Source of the DNA: Endomicrobiales bacterium | Lineage (GTDB): Bacteria > Elusimicrobiota > Endomicrobiia > Endomicrobiales > CAWCFT01 | Reading direction: 5' to 3' | NCBI GenBank assembly: GCA_963794945.1 | Contig: CAWCFT010000002.1 | Location: forward strand, 64,001 to 128,000 | DNA length: 64,000 nucleotides | Shown here: positions 13,284 to 61,544 of the stretch, piece after piece | Numbering within the stretch: position 1 is the first letter of the stretch | Layout of the letters: each line of letters opens with the position of its first letter | Notes under the pieces: model-generated | What the model saw: only the letters and a program-made list of their open reading frames with translations | Told to the model about the DNA's origin: nothing | The model's database searches: none | Translations under genes and position numbers: made by a program

Positions 13284-14714
13284 ATGATATCTTTGACAAA
13301 GTATCAGATGCTGGATGCGGAGCTTTCGCAAATTGAGGGAGAAGACAGGCAGTTCCAGTGCAGGCAGGTCAGCGACGCCGATGTCAAGGCAATGGCTGAA
13401 ACGCTTAAAAAAGAGAAGCAGAAGGTGCCGATTTACCTGCTGCGGCGCAGGAACGGCAAATTGCAAATATTGTGCGGGTTTACCAGATATCTTGCGGCAA
13501 AACTGTTGGGCTGGGCAACAATAGTCGCTATAATTATCCCTGAAGAAGACTTTGAGAACGAAAATGAGATATATAAGTTCGGGGTAATAGAGAACGGCAA
13601 GCGCAAGCCGTTAAGTAATGCGGACAAGGGGAATATTTGCAAAAGTATGAGCGCAAGGGGCATGAACAACGTTGAAATTGGGGAATGTTTAGGCATAAGC
13701 GAAAAACAGGTGCGCAGGTATTTAAAGATAGCCAATGCCCCGGCTGAAGTGCAAAAAGGCATGAGCGACAATAGTGTTCCGCTTAGGGCAATAGACAATA
13801 TTGACCCGGCAACCGGCCAGCTCGGCACGCGTGCCGAGCAAATTGTGGATAACCCCAATTCACGCGTAAAATCAGTGAAAAACGGGTTTGACGCAACCCT
13901 GAAATTCCGGCTTGGGCGCGATGGGGCGGATTTGATCAAGAAGTTTAAGGCCAATATAGATGAGGCGTTTAAAGAAGCGCAAAAACCACAACCAGTGTCT
14001 CGGGCCAGCCATGGCGGGCTTGACCCGGCGGCTGTAAAGGCCGCAAAGGCCACGCTCAAGGCCGACAAGATTGAGGCAGACGGGATTGAAGCGGAGATCA
14101 AGCTCGGGCAGGCCGCGGTCAAGAATGCTGAAAAGGGTAAGCTCGATTCGTCCGCCATGAAACAGCAGTTACAGGAAAAGATAGATAAGCTTAAAGCGCT
14201 GAAACTCAAGATCAAAGAAGCAGAGAAGTTTTTGAAACCCGCCTCTGCTAAACCCAAAAAACCCACTATTCAACAAGCCCCAGGCCGATCATCCCAACCC
14301 CAAGTGTCATCCCAGTCCAATGTGTCATCTCCATCAAATATGTCATCTCGACCGCAGGGAGAGATCTTACCATTAGGCAATAACTCCGCTGTCGGTTTTG
14401 ACCTGATAGAATTGAAGCTGTCTTTCGACCCGTCAAAACCGCCCGCGGAAAAGCTAACCGAAATAAGCCTCACACTTAATGAATCCAAACCAATATATGC
14501 AACGGCGCAGGTTATGGGAAACCCAGTTCCGCTGGACAAAAGCAATAAAGAAATAAAGTGGCATGGCGACGGCGTTGAAGTAACGCCAAACTGGGGCCCG
14601 GAGGTAACCATAAAACTGCCCGCGCCGCTTGCCCAGCCCGGCAAGCTGACAGTCTCCTGCCGGATGCCAAACGGCAAAGACATTGAAGCAAGCGCGGTTG
14701 TAAAACAATCCTGA
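13284..14714 (+). CDS. ParB/Srx-like N-terminal domain + HTH protein, paralogue 1
   Basis: AGGAGG RBS; MAETLKKEKQKVPIYL..QILCGFTRYLAAKLLGWATI..IENGKRKPLS, HTH EIGECLGISEKQVRRYL; coiled coil, low-complexity linker, unique beta-rich C-terminus. Confidence 0.8.
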   Translation: MISLTKYQMLDAELSQIEGEDRQFQCRQVSDADVKAMAETLKKEKQKVPIYLLRRRNGKLQILCGFTRYLAAKLLGWATIVAIIIPEEDFENENEIYKFGVIENGKRKPLSNADKGNICKSMSARGMNNVEIGECLGISEKQVRRYLKIANAPAEVQKGMSDNSVPLRAIDNIDPATGQLGTRAEQIVDNPNSRVKSVKNGFDATLKFRLGRDGADLIKKFKANIDEAFKEAQKPQPVSRASHGGLDPAAVKAAKATLKADKIEADGIEAEIKLGQAAVKNAEKGKLDSSAMKQQLQEKIDKLKALKLKIKEAEKFLKPASAKPKKPTIQQAPGRSSQPQVSSQSNVSSPSNMSSRPQGEILPLGNNSAVGFDLIELKLSFDPSKPPAEKLTEISLTLNESKPIYATAQVMGNPVPLDKSNKEIKWHGDGVEVTPNWGPEVTIKLPAPLAQPGKLTVSCRMPNGKDIEASAVVKQS

Positions 14715-14871
14715 GCCCGTGGTCCCTAAGCAGGCAAAGGCCGTAATAGCATGGGATTGTGACAATTGATACAATATGAGTCAAAAAGTTAGAAAAGGGT
14801 GTGGTATGAATCAATAGGTGACCCCATTGAATGCTGGGAGCCTATCTGAGAATCAAGGTTTTGGGATGTAT

Positions 14872-14900
14872 TTGACTTACATTTATTAGCAAAGTATAAT
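14872..14900 (+). promoter_or_regulatory. Sigma70 promoter of the AAA/DUF3226 cassette
   Basis: TTGACT-17 bp-TATAAT, near consensus. Confidence 0.7.
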
Positions 14901-15018
14901 AATATCCATTAATACTTGTCAGGTTGTTTATTTTCATAAAGACTGATGCTAAGAAAAAAGCTTATAAACAGTATTTTTTAATGATATTTTATATTTAGAA
15001 AAACAAGAGAGGTGCGAA

Positions 15019-16125
15019 ATGCTTAAATCTTTTAAGGTGGAAAATTTCAAATGTTTTAAAAATCTTGCGCTTGATGATTTTAGTCGTTTTAATATTATTG
15101 TGGGGAAAAATGCTGCGGGCAAAACTACTTTGCTCGAAGCGATCAAGATAATGCTTGATGGAGCTCCAGGATCTCTACCCTGGCTGAATAGTTTTCGCAA
15201 TATTCCCATTTTTATTCCACAAAATCCTACAGCAGAACAATTCCGGCAACAATTTACCGGATTCTTTCACGGATTCCACCATGAGATACCAATAAAAATG
15301 CATACCGTGGACTTCAACAACAGAAATGCGGCATTATCTATTTATTTTGACCCTAAGAAAGCTATTAGCATTCAGCCGAAAATTGGTTTTCAACAGTCAG
15401 CATCAGTTCCACAGCCAGACACATCATCGGTTTCACCGACAACAGTGGTGCCATTAGCATTTGATAGAATGGATTTTGAAGGTCATAGGGATATACCTCT
15501 TATCACTATCCAACCTGGCGGTCAAGTATTCTATCAACAAGGAAAATCAATGGGAATTTCTTCTGGTTTTATAACAGGCACATATATTGGATATCCCTCT
15601 GAAAATGCTACTTGGCTATCAACATTGAGCGTGCAAAAACGCAGCAAAGATGTCATAGAGGCATTACGTCAACATTTTTCATTTATAGAAAATGTAACGG
15701 TAGAAGCACCGTTTCAAGGACTCCCTCCACTTGTATACGCTGATATAAAAAATATTCCCGAGAAACTACCACTGTTTGCAGTTTCAGCAGGAATTAGCAG
15801 AATTTTTACGTTTATAGTAGCAGTAGTTACGTATGGCAAAGGAGTTTTACTAATAGATGAAATTGAAAATGGAATTTTTAACGATCAATATCAGCTTGTT
15901 TGGAAAAGCTTAATTGACCTCGCCCGGCAAAATAACACTCAATTATTTGTTAGTACGCATAGTAATGAATGTTTGCGAGCCATACTTCCCATAATGAAGG
16001 ACAACGAGGATGATTTTACGTTTCTTCGCGCTGAACATCAAAACGGAAATTCAAGTATTTCCCGATTTGACGGAAAGGAGATGGAAGCAGCTTTAGCCAA
16101 TGGAGCAGAGATACGATCGGCTTAG
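15019..16125 (+). CDS. AAA_15/AAA_21 (AbiEii-like) ABC-type ATPase
   Basis: VENFKCF, GKNAAGKTTLLEAI, signature-like VSAGISR, LLIDEIENG, FVSTHS; AT-rich relative to neighbours. Confidence 0.85.
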   Translation: MLKSFKVENFKCFKNLALDDFSRFNIIVGKNAAGKTTLLEAIKIMLDGAPGSLPWLNSFRNIPIFIPQNPTAEQFRQQFTGFFHGFHHEIPIKMHTVDFNNRNAALSIYFDPKKAISIQPKIGFQQSASVPQPDTSSVSPTTVVPLAFDRMDFEGHRDIPLITIQPGGQVFYQQGKSMGISSGFITGTYIGYPSENATWLSTLSVQKRSKDVIEALRQHFSFIENVTVEAPFQGLPPLVYADIKNIPEKLPLFAVSAGISRIFTFIVAVVTYGKGVLLIDEIENGIFNDQYQLVWKSLIDLARQNNTQLFVSTHSNECLRAILPIMKDNEDDFTFLRAEHQNGNSSISRFDGKEMEAALANGAEIRSA

Positions 16126-16137
16126 AGGTGTGTAATA

Positions 16138-16791
16138 ATGGACAATTTTGAGTTTACTAAATCACACTTTTTAATGTGCGAAGGCGATGACGATAAGGGA
16201 TTTCTGGAGACTCTCATTAAAGAGCGTGGCTTACCTGATTTCCAAGTTTGTCATGCAGCGGAATGTAATGATAAAAATACGGGGGGAAGACCTGGTTTTG
16301 AACATTCTCTTGCCGGTTTCTCGATCATTAAAGGTTTCGCATATGTAAAAGCAATACTTATTGTTTCGGATAATGACACGCCTGCTTCATTCAACGAAGT
16401 CTGTAGTGCACTGACTAATAATAACTATACTGCACCAAGCACACCTAATTCAGTTGGATCAATTAAAACAAAACCAGTGGCAATTCTTATGATTCCACGT
16501 AATAAGAATGGAGATTTAGAAACGCTGTGTCTTCCGTCAATTCATGAAAAGTGGCCAAAGTCATCAGAATGCGTCACGTCCTTTCTTAGATGTACAGGAG
16601 CCGATCAGTGGCAAAAATCTTCTAGTGTTAATAAGGCTCGCGCAAGAGCTGCGACAGTCGGATTCAATGAAGAAGACCCATTTAGAGGAATAGGCCATCT
16701 GTTCAGGCGCGGCACGCTTTCTAGTAAAAATGCCTGCTTTGATGAAGTTGCAGAATTTCTCAAAAATTTCGATAAAATGTGTAATATATAG
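16138..16791 (+). CDS. DUF3226-like TOPRIM-fold protein (putative nuclease partner)
   Basis: MCEGDDD (TOPRIM EGxxD), IVSDND (DxD), GDLETLCL; 12 bp downstream of the ATPase. Confidence 0.65.
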   Translation: MDNFEFTKSHFLMCEGDDDKGFLETLIKERGLPDFQVCHAAECNDKNTGGRPGFEHSLAGFSIIKGFAYVKAILIVSDNDTPASFNEVCSALTNNNYTAPSTPNSVGSIKTKPVAILMIPRNKNGDLETLCLPSIHEKWPKSSECVTSFLRCTGADQWQKSSSVNKARARAATVGFNEEDPFRGIGHLFRRGTLSSKNACFDEVAEFLKNFDKMCNI

Positions 16792-16937
16792 TTTATAAAT
16801 CCCACAGAAAAACCTATTTATAAATACCTTCTAAGATATATTTTATATTCACAACGCATAAATAAACAGAAAATGTTGTTCAGTGTTCTGTAACTAAACA
16901 AATGGTGTCACCTATGAAAGAAAAAGTCAAGGTGACA

Positions 16938-17150
16938 AAAAGTATCTCCGCAGTAGTTTCTAACTACTGATCTGTTCTGTTAAACAAGTTCTTTGGCCGT
17001 TCGCCCGCTTTGTATCGTAAGAAGCTCCGAAAATATCCGGACTTCAGTCACCTATTGGCAGCTCTGCACTTGGCGGACTGCATGATAGAATCGGGCGACG
17101 CCCCTCCGCTAATCAGACTTGTTGAAGCTGTCAGCCTTGCGGCGGACACT
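16938..17150 (-). ncRNA. Candidate bridge RNA/seekRNA in the IS right (3') non-coding end
   Basis: ~210-nt non-coding segment after the transposase stop; contains TCACCTAT (17048-17055, equal to the donor end 16908-16915) and TCAGACTTG / GTCAGCCTTG (17113-17121, 17130-17139) resembling target GTCAGGCTTG. Confidence 0.6.
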
Positions 17151-18177
17151 TCAGGCACCATTGAGCGCGAGGGACGCCGTAGTCCGTATATAATATGGCC
17201 GCTTATCTTTCAAAACTCGATACACAATTTTCAATAAATCTCTGGCAAGAGCCACTCGCGCCACGTTGGGCGCTTTCCGTTTGGCTATAGCTTCATACTT
17301 TTCTGTTCGTTCAACGCTGCTCTTTGAAAAATGGTGAACTGCCTCAATCAATATCCACTGTAGGTGTTTACGCCGATTCTTATTTAAAGAACCGTGATAT
17401 TCTTTGTCGGCGCTCTGGAATGTTCTCGGTGCAAGGCCTGCGTACGCGCAGAGGCGGTTAAATGTTGTAAAACGGCTAATATCGCCTATCTCGCTTTTAA
17501 TAAGCAATGCACTAAAACTGCCGATCCCAGGAATACTTTCAAGATTCCGTGCGTCGGGATCACTTTCGGCTATTGCATGTAGTTGCCACCCGATACGGTT
17601 TTCACGCGCATTCAAAGCGCCTATTTGCTCAATCCAGTTTTCTGCGGCAATCCGGCACGGTTCAGATAATTTGTTCACCGCAATACCGTTCAATTGCTTC
17701 ATTGAAGTATAGTCACCCGTTGACATCTGTCCATGGCGATCAAGAAGTGACTTTAACCGTGCTGTGTTCCGCGTTCGTTCACTGACAATGCTCATCCGGC
17801 AATGCAACAGTTCTTTAATAGCTCGTATCTTCTTGTCTGGCAGCTCTACTGTAGGTAAATAGCCCTTACGGAGCACATCGGCTATAAGCCGGGCATCTAT
17901 CTTGTTCTGTTTTCTTGTTTCGTTTTGCAAATGCTTTCAGCTCGTACGAATTCGCAAGATACACCTTGTAAGCATATTCTTCGGCGAGATCAACGAAATA
18001 GTACCAATTGTAAGTCGTTTCAACTGCAAGTGTAAATGGTCGTGGGAGCGTTTTATAATATGATCGCAACACTTCTGGCAAATTTGCTATACTCTGGCTG
18101 TCAATCCGTTTGCCCTGCTCGTTCGTCACGTAAAACCAAGAACGCTCTTTGTGCAAGTCTACACCAACATAATTCAT
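17151..18177 (-). CDS. IS110 transposase/recombinase (one-base frameshift near 17905-17910)
   Basis: MNYVGVDLHK, LAVETT, KT(D)KIDA across the frameshift, LESIPGIG, AYAGLAPRTFQSA, ARVALARDLL; GAGGAGG RBS. Confidence 0.9.
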
Positions 18178-18436
18178 GGCAACCTCCTCGTTTTGTCTTA
18201 TTGCTCGATACAATAAGTTTAACAAAACTAGATGGAGGTTGCTTTCATATTATCAGGCTTGACTTATTGAACTAAAAAGATTTTGACAAAATCTATAAAT
18301 TGACTCAATGAATAAAAACAGCGGCGATCCTGACTAAGTGATTTAAAGGACGTAAAGGATAATAGTTAGTGAAGCCGAGACAGCATTTTATAATGTCTAT
18401 AAATGAATGGTTTGATTCCGTAATCTCAAGGATACA

Positions 18437-18916
18437 ATGTTTAACTCAATTAAAAGCATCATGGGTTTTTTGGCTGGTGTTGCTATAACAGTAGGATTGT
18501 TGACTAGCCGCCACCTTATCCCGGGAGGTATCGGGTACGGCGCCGGTTACTTGTTAATGCCGTTTCAGATCATTTTTCTGATCATAGGCGGGCTGATAGT
18601 ACTGTCGGCTACATTATGGGCAGCCGGAAAATTGCTCAACGGCGCGGTTACCTGGAAAGAACCGCGCGTCATTATAGCGGCCCTTTCAATCGCGTTCATT
18701 GCGAACGCCCTCTTTATCGCCCTGGTTGATCTGTTCGCCTTAAAAAGCGGGCCGAGGTCATTGATAGCCTTGCTTGGGGTGCCGGTCATTTACGGCAACC
18801 TTTCAGCTGTCCTTTGTAAAACAAGCCTTAAAACCGCCATGCTCAACATCTTCGCCGGCGCGCTTGCCACGATGGGCGCAGGTTTCATTATAACCGCGAT
18901 TATTCGCGGCTGGTAG
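18437..18916 (+). CDS. Hypothetical membrane protein
   Basis: AAGGA RBS; about five hydrophobic segments. Confidence 0.7.
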   Translation: MFNSIKSIMGFLAGVAITVGLLTSRHLIPGGIGYGAGYLLMPFQIIFLIIGGLIVLSATLWAAGKLLNGAVTWKEPRVIIAALSIAFIANALFIALVDLFALKSGPRSLIALLGVPVIYGNLSAVLCKTSLKTAMLNIFAGALATMGAGFIITAIIRGW

Positions 18917-18948
18917 AAAATAGGCTAAAAGGCATAAAGGATAATGTT

Positions 18949-19383
18949 ATGAAAACATTTTATGCTATGGTATTGATGGTGTCGTTGGCAGCTGCGGGGG
19001 TTGCGCCTTTGGCGGGCGAGTCGGATGAAACGGATAAAGGCAAAACGGAGGAACAGAGCGCGGTTCCGGACAGCGCTGCCATTAGTTCACTGCTCAATAA
19101 CCTCGATAAGATCACGTATTCCAACGGCCAGGTTTTAGTTGACGGGAAGCCTCTCAATATAGGTTCGATCGGCGGCCTTTCAGACATTAAGATAACGGAA
19201 TCAGCAAACGGGCAAACTCTCGCGAACGGGCAGCCTCTCTCATACTATGTCAATATACTGCAGGCTAATTCCAGTTTGCTCGCGGCGTTTGTAAATAATT
19301 CTACCAGGGACGCGTATAACGCCTTGATGGCCCTTATCAGTTCAAAGAAGCAAAATGATAACAGCGCCGCCCAGCCTAAATGA
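18949..19383 (+). CDS. Hypothetical secreted protein
   Basis: AAGGA RBS, signal peptide MKTFYAMVLMVSLAAAGVAPLA. Confidence 0.65.
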   Translation: MKTFYAMVLMVSLAAAGVAPLAGESDETDKGKTEEQSAVPDSAAISSLLNNLDKITYSNGQVLVDGKPLNIGSIGGLSDIKITESANGQTLANGQPLSYYVNILQANSSLLAAFVNNSTRDAYNALMALISSKKQNDNSAAQPK

Positions 19384-19439
19384 ATTTATTAATATAAGTG
19401 GGGCGGTTGCAATTAATTATATGGAGAAGGAGCTTATAA

Positions 19440-19946
19440 ATGAATCAAACCCCGGCAGAAGAAAATGTAAAACTCGCAAAGATATTTAACATTAAGGCAA
19501 CGTGGGCAGGCTTTTTGAAAGCCGGCGCGCTTGGGCCGGGTTCACCGGAAATGCCGACAAGCGGGACTTATGACAGTAAAACGATCGCGGACCGGTTCTG
19601 GTATGTTTGCGACATGGATATTGCATTTGGAGCCGGCAATAACAGCTTGCATTGGAAAGGGCATATGGCCGTTGGCTGGAACGAGATGAACAAAACTTAT
19701 AGCGCGGTTTTAGTTGATAATTTAGGGATATACCTGCCAATGACAGGTGAAATGAAAGGCGAGATTTTTATTCTTACTTCCACAATAGGCAACACTCTTA
19801 ACGGAAAAAAGACAAAGGCGCGTTTTACCTGGGATTTCTCTCAACAGGACAATATCCAGTTCACAAATGAGCACCAGGCCGATGACGGCCCCTGGCAGCT
19901 GTTCGAAGTGGAAACAATTAAACCCGTTTGGGAGTCAAAACTCTAA
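19440..19946 (+). CDS. Hypothetical protein (DUF1579-like)
   Basis: AAGGAG RBS; beta-rich with WKGHMAVGWN..KTY..VLVDNLG pattern. Confidence 0.55.
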   Translation: MNQTPAEENVKLAKIFNIKATWAGFLKAGALGPGSPEMPTSGTYDSKTIADRFWYVCDMDIAFGAGNNSLHWKGHMAVGWNEMNKTYSAVLVDNLGIYLPMTGEMKGEIFILTSTIGNTLNGKKTKARFTWDFSQQDNIQFTNEHQADDGPWQLFEVETIKPVWESKL

Positions 19947-19951
19947 TGTTT

Positions 19952-20644
19952 ATGAAAACAATATTATTTATTGTCACGGTTGTTATATTTATATCCGGCT
20001 GTACGACGCTCAGGCGGCCTGTCACGGTGCCGAACGCATCAGGGATCGAACAGGACTTGAGGTATCAGGCAGTTGAAAAGGCGTGCGACCTTATCACGAA
20101 CAAGCACTCGAGACTCGAAGAAATTACAAAACTGATAATAATGAAAGAAAAAGAGATAGATAATTTCACCAAAAAGGACGCCAGCAATCACAGCAGCGGC
20201 CACAAATACATAATTGAAGTGCTTAGGGAATCGATAAGTGAGTTGACGAACGAAATGGAAATGAAAGCCCGCGTAACCCAAAACATTGAAAGCCTGGTGC
20301 AGAGGTTAAAACCCAACAAACTGTGCGTTGAGATACTGGGCGATTATGACAGGCAGTATATTTACCGTTATATAATAGAAAAGGAGCTCCGGAAGAATGA
20401 ATTGACCAATCTATCCGAAGAAAGAGATGCTGACTACAAACTGCGGGTGGTCTTAAAAAAAGACGGTGTAGACGCGCGGGATTATAATTGTTTGTGGCTG
20501 TACACAACCCACACACTGCAAGCGGAAGCGGACGTTGTATTTGAATTTATTGATATTAAGACTAACACAGTTATATTTACCGAAACAAATCACGGCTATG
20601 CCTCTTACAAGGAGAGCTATTTTGTCGGTATCGGGCCATTGTAA
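19952..20644 (+). CDS. Hypothetical lipoprotein
   Basis: Signal peptide with lipobox FISGC. Confidence 0.65.
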   Translation: MKTILFIVTVVIFISGCTTLRRPVTVPNASGIEQDLRYQAVEKACDLITNKHSRLEEITKLIIMKEKEIDNFTKKDASNHSSGHKYIIEVLRESISELTNEMEMKARVTQNIESLVQRLKPNKLCVEILGDYDRQYIYRYIIEKELRKNELTNLSEERDADYKLRVVLKKDGVDARDYNCLWLYTTHTLQAEADVVFEFIDIKTNTVIFTETNHGYASYKESYFVGIGPL

Positions 20645-20735
20645 GAACCGTTAAAAATTGTTATTCTGAATTATACTGTCAAATTGGACGACATGTCACG
20701 ACGTAACAGTATGCAATAGATTTATTATAATGAAC

Positions 20736-20817
20736 CGCCCCTCACCTCCCGCCACTAAACCATCGGCGGGCAGGCTTTTCCTCTCCCTCGAGGGGAGAGG
20801 ATGAAAGGTGAGGGTGA
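20736..20817. repeat. CCCTCACC...CTCTCCCTCGAGGGGAGAGG...GGTGAGGGTG palindromic element
   Basis: Related to the inner element of the 9.3 kb and 10.6 kb repeats; carries a small CCCGCC...GGCGGG hairpin insert. Confidence 0.7.
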
Positions 20818-21044
20818 TAAATGGCTAATTTTGACAGCTATAATATTCTTACAATAATATTTCACCCGAGATTTTGCAACAGGAATCGGATTCTTTGAAT
20901 AATGCCGGTTTTGTCCTGTTTGTAGCTGCGAAGCTTGCTTCGCCCGTTTGGCTTTGTGGTTTTACAGCAACATCAGCAGAGCAAGCTCTGCGGCTACAAC
21001 AGCTTTTATGTCTATTGTAAAATCTGGGTTTTAAGGAGGCACAA

Positions 21045-61513: not shown

Positions 61514-61544
61514 TTAGTTCAATAAGTAAAGCCTGACACCATTT
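61514..61544 (-). repeat. Unoccupied copy of the IS110 target motif
   Basis: Reverse complement AAATGGTGTCAGGCTTTACTTATTGAACTAA vs rejoined IS flanks AAATGGTGTCAGGCTTGACTTATTGAACTAA. Confidence 0.85.

Follow-up and report, generated by a model that had tools for sequence, protein, structure and literature searches.

An IS1111-type insertion sequence of an Endomicrobiales bacterium very probably encodes a bridge/seekRNA whose target guide overlaps the recombinase gene

RNA-guided recombination in the IS110 family has been described for IS621 and for the IS1111-type elements ISEc11, ISPa11, ISKpn4, and ISPst6. In IS621, as set out in the text of PMC11208160 and PMC11208158, a single bridge RNA contains one module for binding the target and another for binding the donor, the left target guide (LTG) and left donor guide (LDG) pair with the bottom strand, the right target guide (RTG) and right donor guide (RDG) pair with the top strand, the core is a dinucleotide, and a promoter forms at the junction of the element ends. 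For the IS1111-type elements, the text of PMC11187229 describes a seekRNA encoded in a non-coding region downstream of the recombinase gene, subterminal repeats, a circle-junction promoter, targets that are repeats, natural retargeting among relatives, and a top-strand match that lies 5′ of the bottom-strand match. These features have their likenesses in a 1.35-kb insertion sequence on the minus strand of a 64,000-nucleotide stretch of an Endomicrobiales bacterium genome (GCA_963794945.1, contig CAWCFT010000002.1, positions 64,001 to 128,000; hereafter the window). We conclude that it is very probably an IS110-family, IS1111-type element encoding a bridge/seekRNA, with a mechanism assigned by analogy with IS621 and ISEc11. 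The guide-RNA mechanism of IS1111-type elements was already published in 2024, and the element reported here is a further example of it, with no new mechanism.

The genome (2.9 Mb, 19 contigs) contains five copies of the element at 99-100% identity, and the limits of the element, set by the divergence of the flanks in an alignment of these copies, are sharp. Read in the sense of the recombinase (18255 down to 16909), the junctions are ...GTCAAGCC-TG-ATAATATGAAAGC... and ...TTTCATAGG-TG-ACACCAT..., with TG at both junctions in 5/5 copies and a single TG in unoccupied sites. Insertion is site-specific and leaves a short core at both junctions with no long target duplication, as in the IS110 family. 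The left end comprises 76 nt (18253-18178) and the right end 240 nt (17150-16911), so that, as in the IS1111 group, the recombinase gene is followed by the longer of the two non-coding regions.

Comparison with homologous elements uncovered a predicted structured RNA of about 176 nt (17177 to 17002) at this end. DNA was fetched for 38 genome and 14 metagenome loci, of which 39 contained the region, 36 of them distinct; in the alignment of these 36 elements, the conserved block starts about 25 nt before the recombinase stop codon and extends about 150 nt past it. RNAalifold predicted 47 pairs, 29 of them compensatory. A UAUC/GAUA pairing and two 2-bp helices never covary and were dropped, leaving a trimmed structure of four helices and 40 pairs, in which 96.0% of cells are paired and 29/40 pairs changed on both sides, compared to 79.9% in column shuffles (0/500) and 34.9-49.3% when partners were slid by one to three columns. 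Helix P1 alone contains 13 pairs, 10 of which changed on both sides, with 96.7% of cells paired (remaining stems in Table 1). The element's own sequence (17179-16999) folds into stems P1 to P5 at -73.2 kcal/mol (z = -3.54; 0/200 shuffles as good), and the fold of the non-coding stretch 16909-17153 alone is weaker (z = -2.55; 2/200) and includes a long-range stem that the comparison does not support. P5 was recovered in the single-sequence fold and its duplex energy is lower in cognate than in non-cognate combinations (-7.42 vs. -5.89 kcal/mol; 0/10000); it is strong and compensated in the present lineage and about seven others, and weak elsewhere. A predicted structured and conserved RNA adjoins the recombinase gene, as in bridge/seekRNA systems. 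An earlier reading of the window, made from the letters of the DNA (the sequence-only reading), had placed the RNA within 16938-17150; this range holds for the 3′ part, but the 5′ part extends into the open reading frame (ORF) to approximately 17177, about 27 nt past the upper limit.

These data also bear on the view that the matches between this RNA and the element's surroundings arose by chance, and that the decayed window copy makes no functional RNA. The recombinase gene is indeed broken in the window copy, and the 8-mer TCACCTAT, which the sequence-only reading had proposed as a donor guide, is weak evidence when counted alone (3 occurrences in the window vs. 1.22 expected, with 12/100 shuffles reaching 3, which is not significant); the meaning of this repeat therefore comes from the comparison of homologues and not from its count. 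Against chance, the alignment blocks spanning the RNA have zero differences across the five copies, two of which carry intact genes, and both fold and guides are kept in elements whose recombinases are merely 52-61% identical. This explanation is already contradicted by the comparative data, and we regard it as barely credible.

The evidence for guiding is strongest in the internal loop between P1 and P2, where one strand is predicted to pair with the left half of the target (bottom strand) and the other with the right half (top strand), and both covary with these halves. The 3′ strand of this loop reads A-ACAAGUC-UG-AUU, and the LTG, CAAGUCUG(A), occupies the only variable columns of an otherwise invariant strand. 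It corresponds to the left flank CAAGCC-TG with one U:G wobble and, because it has the same sense as that flank, would pair with the bottom strand. The left target guide proposed in the sequence-only reading from TCAGACTTG is thereby upheld, as its RNA, CAAGUCUGA, is single-stranded in the covariation-supported fold and tracks the left flank in homologues. Apart from one C:A mismatch, the 5′ strand, AAUGGUGCC, is the reverse complement of (G)ACACCAUU in the right flank. It contains the RTG, a Gly-Ala codon pair before the stop codon, which at 17161-17154 lies outside the range flagged earlier and was missed there; in most relatives the RTG is GGGGUC (Gly-Val), facing flanks that start with GACCCC. 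In effect, the target loop would read roughly 5 + 2 + 5 bp, AAGYC-TG-ACACC.

Guide-flank agreement exceeds that of non-cognate combinations on both sides. The LTG matches its left flank at 4.73/7 positions when cognate and 3.13/7 when non-cognate (0/10000 permutations), and the RTG matches its right flank at 4.94/7 and 4.34/7, respectively (1/10000 permutations). With one row retained per distinct guide, the expected covariation between loop and flank among homologues was found again (LTG, 0/10000, n = 21; RTG, 3/10000, n = 14), and maxima occur solely at shift 0 of the register test (LTG, 5.67/7; RTG, 5.78/7). The signal is concentrated in the five core-adjacent positions, where compatibility among cognate rows is 94-97% for the LTG and 86-95% for the RTG. 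Among the five copies in this genome, copy C1c has a perfect LTG match, CAAGTC-TG.

Could the structure instead be a cis-acting part of the recombinase mRNA, such as a stability element, a terminator, or a translational control, with the flank matches a by-product of similar targets across the family? Part of the fold does lie within the ORF and contains the stop codon, no promoter-like site was found within the element before the RNA, and the family targets are alike enough that non-cognate scores already reach 4.5-5.0 of 7 with wobble. On the other side, cognate scores are higher than non-cognate scores, with 0 to 3 of 10000 permutations reaching them, and this holds in the correct register only; the columns that vary coincide exactly with the loop strands beside an invariant scaffold, and a terminator scan of the minus strand gave no candidate. 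We consider it extremely unlikely.

The other motifs of the sequence-only reading fared differently. All four lie where it had put them (TCACCTAT at 17048-17055 and 16908-16915, TCAGACTTG at 17113-17121, GTCAGCCTTG at 17130-17139, and CGACGCC at 17096-17102), and its expectation that they would fall in internal loops is borne out for TCACCTAT and TCAGACTTG, found in loop strands, but not for GTCAGCCTTG and CGACGCC, found in stems. The segment GTCAGCCTTG, offered as a second candidate for the left target guide, is the 3′ arm of the P2 hairpin, and CGACGCC, offered as the right target arm, falls within the 3′ strand of P1 and the start of P5. When P2 was evaluated as a target guide, cognate and non-cognate scores were 4.16 and 4.00 (1365/10000 permutations, 32 rows), and it was rejected; its likeness to the target is limited to the present lineage and has no family-wide counterpart.

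Downstream of the target loop, the RNA continues after P1 and P5 as ...UCUAUCA-U, the hairpin P3, and C-AAUAGG-UG-AC. By comparison of homologues, the two strands flanking P3 are predicted to pair with the element's own joined ends, with covariation at two variable positions, evidence that is thinner than for the target. The LDG contains TCACCTAT, its RNA AAUAGGUGA is single-stranded in the covariation-supported fold and tracks the element end in homologues, and the donor-guide assignment of this motif thus stands; AAUAGGUG reads in the same direction as the right end and core. The RDG, UAUCA (17087-17083), which had not been recognized earlier, is invariant in 36/36 rows and faces an invariant TGATA.

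An alternative is that the RNA is a target-only seekRNA, in which the recombinase recognizes the ends through the subterminal inverted repeats (sTIRs) and the donor segments are conserved for folding or protein binding. LDG, RDG, and both ends are nearly invariant, and their agreement is mostly without covariation. The RDG pairs over merely 5 nt in the present lineage, UAUC was pairable with the downstream GAUA in RNAalifold, and the sTIRs of this family do covary; the text of PMC11187229, in addition, locates only target matches for its short seekRNA and stresses sTIRs for IS1111. Where the ends vary, however, the RNA follows them. A G stands beside UAUCA only in L042, L045, and L046, which are the 3/3 loci with the left end TGATAC, and a right end of ATGGG is coupled with RNA AUGGG in 9/9 rows, with no row placing A opposite C. 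A target-only seekRNA is for these reasons very unlikely, and we retain the reading with two donor guides.

In that reading, the donor junction would be built from P5, P3, and P4, and the geometry of the donor module repeats that of the target loop. A different donor module centered on P4 (AAUAGGUGAC, P4, GAUA) was rejected because it would require bottom-strand pairing by both of its strands and because GAUA stays the same where L042 and L045 vary at the left end. On the left guides, the dinucleotide that follows the core (AU in the LTG, AC in the LDG) matches insertion products and not substrates; by analogy they may resemble handshake guides, on strands opposite to those of IS621. Both dinucleotides are invariant and hence carry no covariation information. 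No partner or role was found for the P4 hairpin and the near-invariant GAUA strand (17021-17045 and 17008-17020).

Several observations weigh against a guide RNA with these four guides. The window copy meets its commonest target with a core-adjacent C:A mismatch in the RTG and a U:G wobble in the LTG, and pairing of the RDG past UAUCA fails in the present lineage (RNA UCUAUCA vs. DNA TGATAAT). The RTG ends with C then U and covers only the G of the core, while LTG, LDG, and RDG include UG or CA; the text of PMC11208160 places the core within all four guides of IS621, a trait of that element that has not been stated as necessary for IS1111 seekRNAs. P5 is strong in only about 12/35 rows, and one locus (L047) matches its own right flank poorly (2-3/7). 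The scores themselves have limits: the cognate values of 4.73 and 4.94 include a row (L071) in which the RTG is truncated, the homologue flanks depend on element limits inferred by homology to the present five copies, and the sequences are related, such that permutation counts overstate independence. A scan of 14000-21000 against Rfam at E <= 1 gave no bridge-RNA family and no family matching the predicted RNA. Finally, the sole RNA-library evidence is a 194-nt metatranscriptome contig identical to 16920-17112, and such contigs are silent on strand, ends, and DNA carry-over. That library (run X9) covers just 16920-17112 and 18099-18268, and neither the uncovered parts nor the contig end, which adjoins the variable guide, is informative.

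The RTG and the 5′ strand of P1 are also codons of the recombinase, and P2 opens with the stop codon (UGA, 17153-17151) as its first base triplet. This arrangement, with the ORF closed by UGA at the foot of P2, is shared by 25/36 rows; L031, L034, and L048 are natural variants with the stop codon further upstream. In five rows the ORF ends 9-52 nt earlier; the tail of the protein would therefore be dispensable and its conservation owed to the RNA. If the overlap is functional, retargeting of the right half-site rewrites the last residues of the protein, a ribosome completing the ORF must melt the target loop, and excision of the guide RNA from the mRNA takes away the stop codon. That the overlap acts as a built-in dosage switch, by which each transcript is committed either to recombinase or to guide, is an unlikely proposal that we offer tentatively, and no description of a switch of this type for bridge recombinases was found in the literature text. 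Likewise, a search limited to text passages of the bridge-RNA literature found no statement of the ORF overlap or of a three-way junction. A programmable guide that overlaps the last recombinase codons is a design constraint for engineering, and it leaves the understanding of how bridge recombinase systems work unchanged.

Table 1 Coordinates of the element, its recombinase gene, and its predicted RNA within the window.
Feature	Position	Strand	Basis or remark
Whole insertion sequence	16909..18255	-	flanked by TG cores at 16909-16910 and at 18254-18255, both included
Element proper, cores excluded	16911-18253	-	aligned copies, flank divergence points
Right half of target, ACACCATT	16901..16908	-	aligned copies, guide/flank table
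Left half of target, GTCAAGCC	18256..18263	-	aligned copies, guide/flank table
Subterminal inverted repeat, right copy, TATGAAAG read on + strand	16913..16920	.	8-nt word shared with 18242-18249
Subterminal inverted repeat, left copy, TATGAAAG	18242..18249	-	partner of 16913-16920
-35 box TTGACT, right end	16925..16930	-	promoter part only after end joining
-10 box TAATAT, left end	18247..18252	-	core TG in front gives an extended -10
Predicted bridge/seekRNA core, stems P1-P5 with target loop and donor junction	17002..17177	-	RNAalifold, 36 sequences
P1, 5′ strand, within recombinase ORF	17164..17177	-	pairs with 17098-17110
Predicted RTG AUGGUGCC, last sense codons of ORF	17154..17161	-	guide/flank table, permutation and register tests
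P2, distal hairpin of target loop; base includes stop codon; 3′ arm is GTCAGCCTTG	17124..17152	-	10 pairs, 6 changed on both sides
Predicted LTG and core, CAAGUC-UG	17114..17121	-	variable columns 114-121 adjoin invariant UGAUU
P1, 3′ strand, contains most of CGACGCC	17098..17110	-	RNAalifold and pair counts
P5, 5′ strand CGCCCG; partner 17002-17007 (CGGGCG)	17092..17097	-	single-sequence fold; closes donor junction
Predicted RDG UAUCA	17083..17087	-	complementary to top-strand TG-ATA, left end
P3, hairpin separating the two donor guides	17058..17081	-	8 pairs, 7 changed on both sides, 99.0% of cells paired
Predicted LDG AAUAGG-UG-AC	17047..17056	-	sense of right end CATAGG-TG and first two flank bases
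P4, third hairpin, UGAAG...CUUC base shared with P2	17021..17045	-	9 pairs, 6 changed on both sides
Single strand UUACGAUACAAAG with near-invariant GAUA	17008..17020	-	column conservation
Recombinase gene, N-terminal fragment, ATG at 18177	17866..18177	-	PF01548 DEDD_Tnp_IS110, 1.6e-07; ended early by +1 frameshift
Recombinase gene, C-terminal fragment, other frame	17151..17930	-	PF02371 1.3e-19 and PF01548; NCBIfam NF033542 167.9 bits

Set beside IS621 as the text of PMC11208160 and PMC11208158 describes it, the element differs in several respects. Its RNA is at the 3′ end of the element and not the 5′ end, each module has its guides in reversed order, with the right guide 5′ of the left guide, TG takes the place of CT as the core, the RTG spans one core base, and the predicted donor module is a three-way junction (P5, P3, P4) where that of IS621 is a simple internal loop. 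Unlike the ISEc11-type elements described in the text of PMC11187229, it has a distant recombinase with serine motif SA, where SG, TG, or TA would be found in those elements. In the present element, the RTG and half of P1 lie inside the ORF.

The recombinase contains the DEDD (PF01548) and Transposase_20 (PF02371) domains together with the catalytic D-E-D-D and serine residues of the IS110 family. An uninterrupted ORF of 341 aa is found in 2/5 copies, on contig 1 (142551-143930) and contig 3, and the intact protein of copy C1b scores 221.8 bits on the NCBIfam model NF033542, 'IS110 family RNA-guided transposase' (cut-off 140 bits). Structural matches in the PDB include ISCro4 (1.9e-16) and, with the same DEDD and Tnp-domain arrangement, IS621 (8wt6, E = 3.7e-13); the ISCro4 alignment retains D7, D91, D94, and the SIPGIG and GL-P----S motifs. 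In 34 homologues, E53, D91, D94, and S255 are invariant and D7 is nearly so. The serine motif, GLAPRTFQSA, has G, L, P, and S in place and A after the S; the text of PMC11187229 gives the IS1111-group motif as GL-P----S(T)G and names the variants SG, TG, and occasionally TA.

In the window copy and two further copies the gene is frameshifted. The ORF list splits the gene of the window copy between two minus-strand ORFs that overlap (17866-18225 and 17151-17930). This copy has one extra A when compared to copies C1b, C1c, and C3, which throws the KKT-DKID motif out of frame and with it D91 and D94; metagenome contigs from DNA runs X1 and X3 carry the allele with one base fewer at 17905. Because its own gene is frameshifted, the window copy needs recombinase from the intact copies on contigs 1 and 3. 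Database searches returned 704 relatives of the recombinase at E <= 1e-30, with environmental genomes of Omnitrophota, Scalindua, Elusimicrobiota, and others represented, and identity to plasmid-borne IS110-family proteins peaks at 35.7%. Foreign matches in 60 genomes of the same order reach only 30% identity and were of no help for comparison. By these sequence comparisons, the recombinase probably represents a new clade, distant from known members.

The ends of the element carry the other traits of the group. The 8-bp subterminal inverted repeat, TATGAAAG, is separated from the left core by 4 nt and from the right core by 2 nt, and its length is within the approximately 7-17 bp of the IS1111 group; in 30 loci with both ends, these repeats vary among lineages yet stay inverted (7.17 nt cognate vs. 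5.26 non-cognate; 0/5000). Joining of the ends yields TTGACN, a spacer of exactly 17 nt, and TA[ACG]TAT in 30/30 homologous loci, and the core TG serves as an extended -10 at the joined ends in 28/30. A circle-junction promoter is a known trait of the family in the text of PMC11187229 and PMC11208160.

Transcription, processing, protein binding, and chemistry are inferred by analogy. The element would excise as a circle, and its joined ends would form a sigma-70 promoter (TTGACT, 17 nt, TG-n-TAATAT) driving recombinase and RNA in one transcript. An RNA-loaded recombinase tetramer would then align the circle junction with the target, the RTG pairing to the right of the core on the top strand and the LTG to the left of it on the bottom strand, and strand exchange would take place at TG. 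No promoter-like site was found in front of the RNA; this is consistent with a transcript shared with the recombinase, as has been suggested for ISEc11. A terminator scan called none on the minus strand after the RNA, and neither a circle-junction nor an empty-site joint was seen in four sequencing runs.

The proposed target is a dispersed chromosomal repeat. The sites of the five copies are AAGCC-TG-ACACC (three copies), AAGCC-TG-ACTCC, and AAGTC-TG-GTACC, and the first of these is part of a dispersed repeat of about 27 bp, TTAGTTCAAYAAGTMAAGCCTGACACC. The exact 12-mer AAGCCTGACACC occurs unoccupied at five sites in the genome compared to 0.30 expected, and a 23-mer with <=5 changes has eight matches, two of which are occupied; all target-repeat sites examined are intergenic. 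The contig 1 site, AAGTC-TG-GTACC, is the best match to the guides (left 8/8, right 6/6 with one wobble). Together, the compensatory fold, the guides that follow flanks and ends, and the dispersed repeat are comparative evidence in favor of an RNA-guided recombinase aimed at a chromosomal repeat, as the sequence-only reading had suggested. A natural bridge RNA of a clade from uncultured lineages is thereby dissected into four predicted guides, a TG core, a junction promoter, and subterminal repeats, and its natural retargeting series could aid the choice and engineering of IS1111-type recombinases.

Further observations concern target sites and flanks. An unoccupied copy of the target repeat, TTCAATAAGTAAAGCCTGACACC, is found at 61518-61540 (+) of the same window. 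The upstream half of the repeat (TTCAAYAAGTM; 18256-18275 (-) and contigs 1, 11, and 17) matches the RNA strand UUCAACAAGUC, five bases outside the register in use; the match spans 11/11 for the contig 1 flank, 10 for contig 17, and 9 for contig 11, and matches of 9 or more were obtained for 26/20000 random 35-mers. Among the homologous loci, L065 (around 300-343) retains, some 25 nt upstream of the site in use, another target-like site that is intact, GTCAAGTCTGACACCG, a further sequence resembling the right end occurs in L049 about 670 nt downstream (around 3103), and the RNA of L027 has lost its left-target-guide segment. In L068, the right flank, from about 2474 up to where the contig stops, is a tandem array in which the final ~19 nt of the right end (TATTATCTCAATAGGTGAC) recur; the array is either an assembly artefact or the result of repeated end capture.

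In the left end, the leader segment GCAACCUCC is predicted to pair with GGAGGUUGC over the ribosome-binding site before the ATG (18234-18242 with 18179-18187, minus strand). This leader stem has 8 pairs, 7 of them compensatory in 30 homologues, and is probably a translational brake on the recombinase. The sole match in the Rfam scan was to the snoRNA model snoZ267 at 14909-14977 (+), which scored 24.9 bits where the gathering score is 43 (E = 0.23) and is most likely due to chance. Beside the right end of the element, a gene pair at 15019-16791 (+) encodes an AbiLi-like ATPase (PADLOC AbiLi 2e-48; Pfam AAA_15 and AAA_21) and a DUF3226 protein with weak PDC-M38B matches, and by sequence this pair looks like an AbiL-type anti-phage system.

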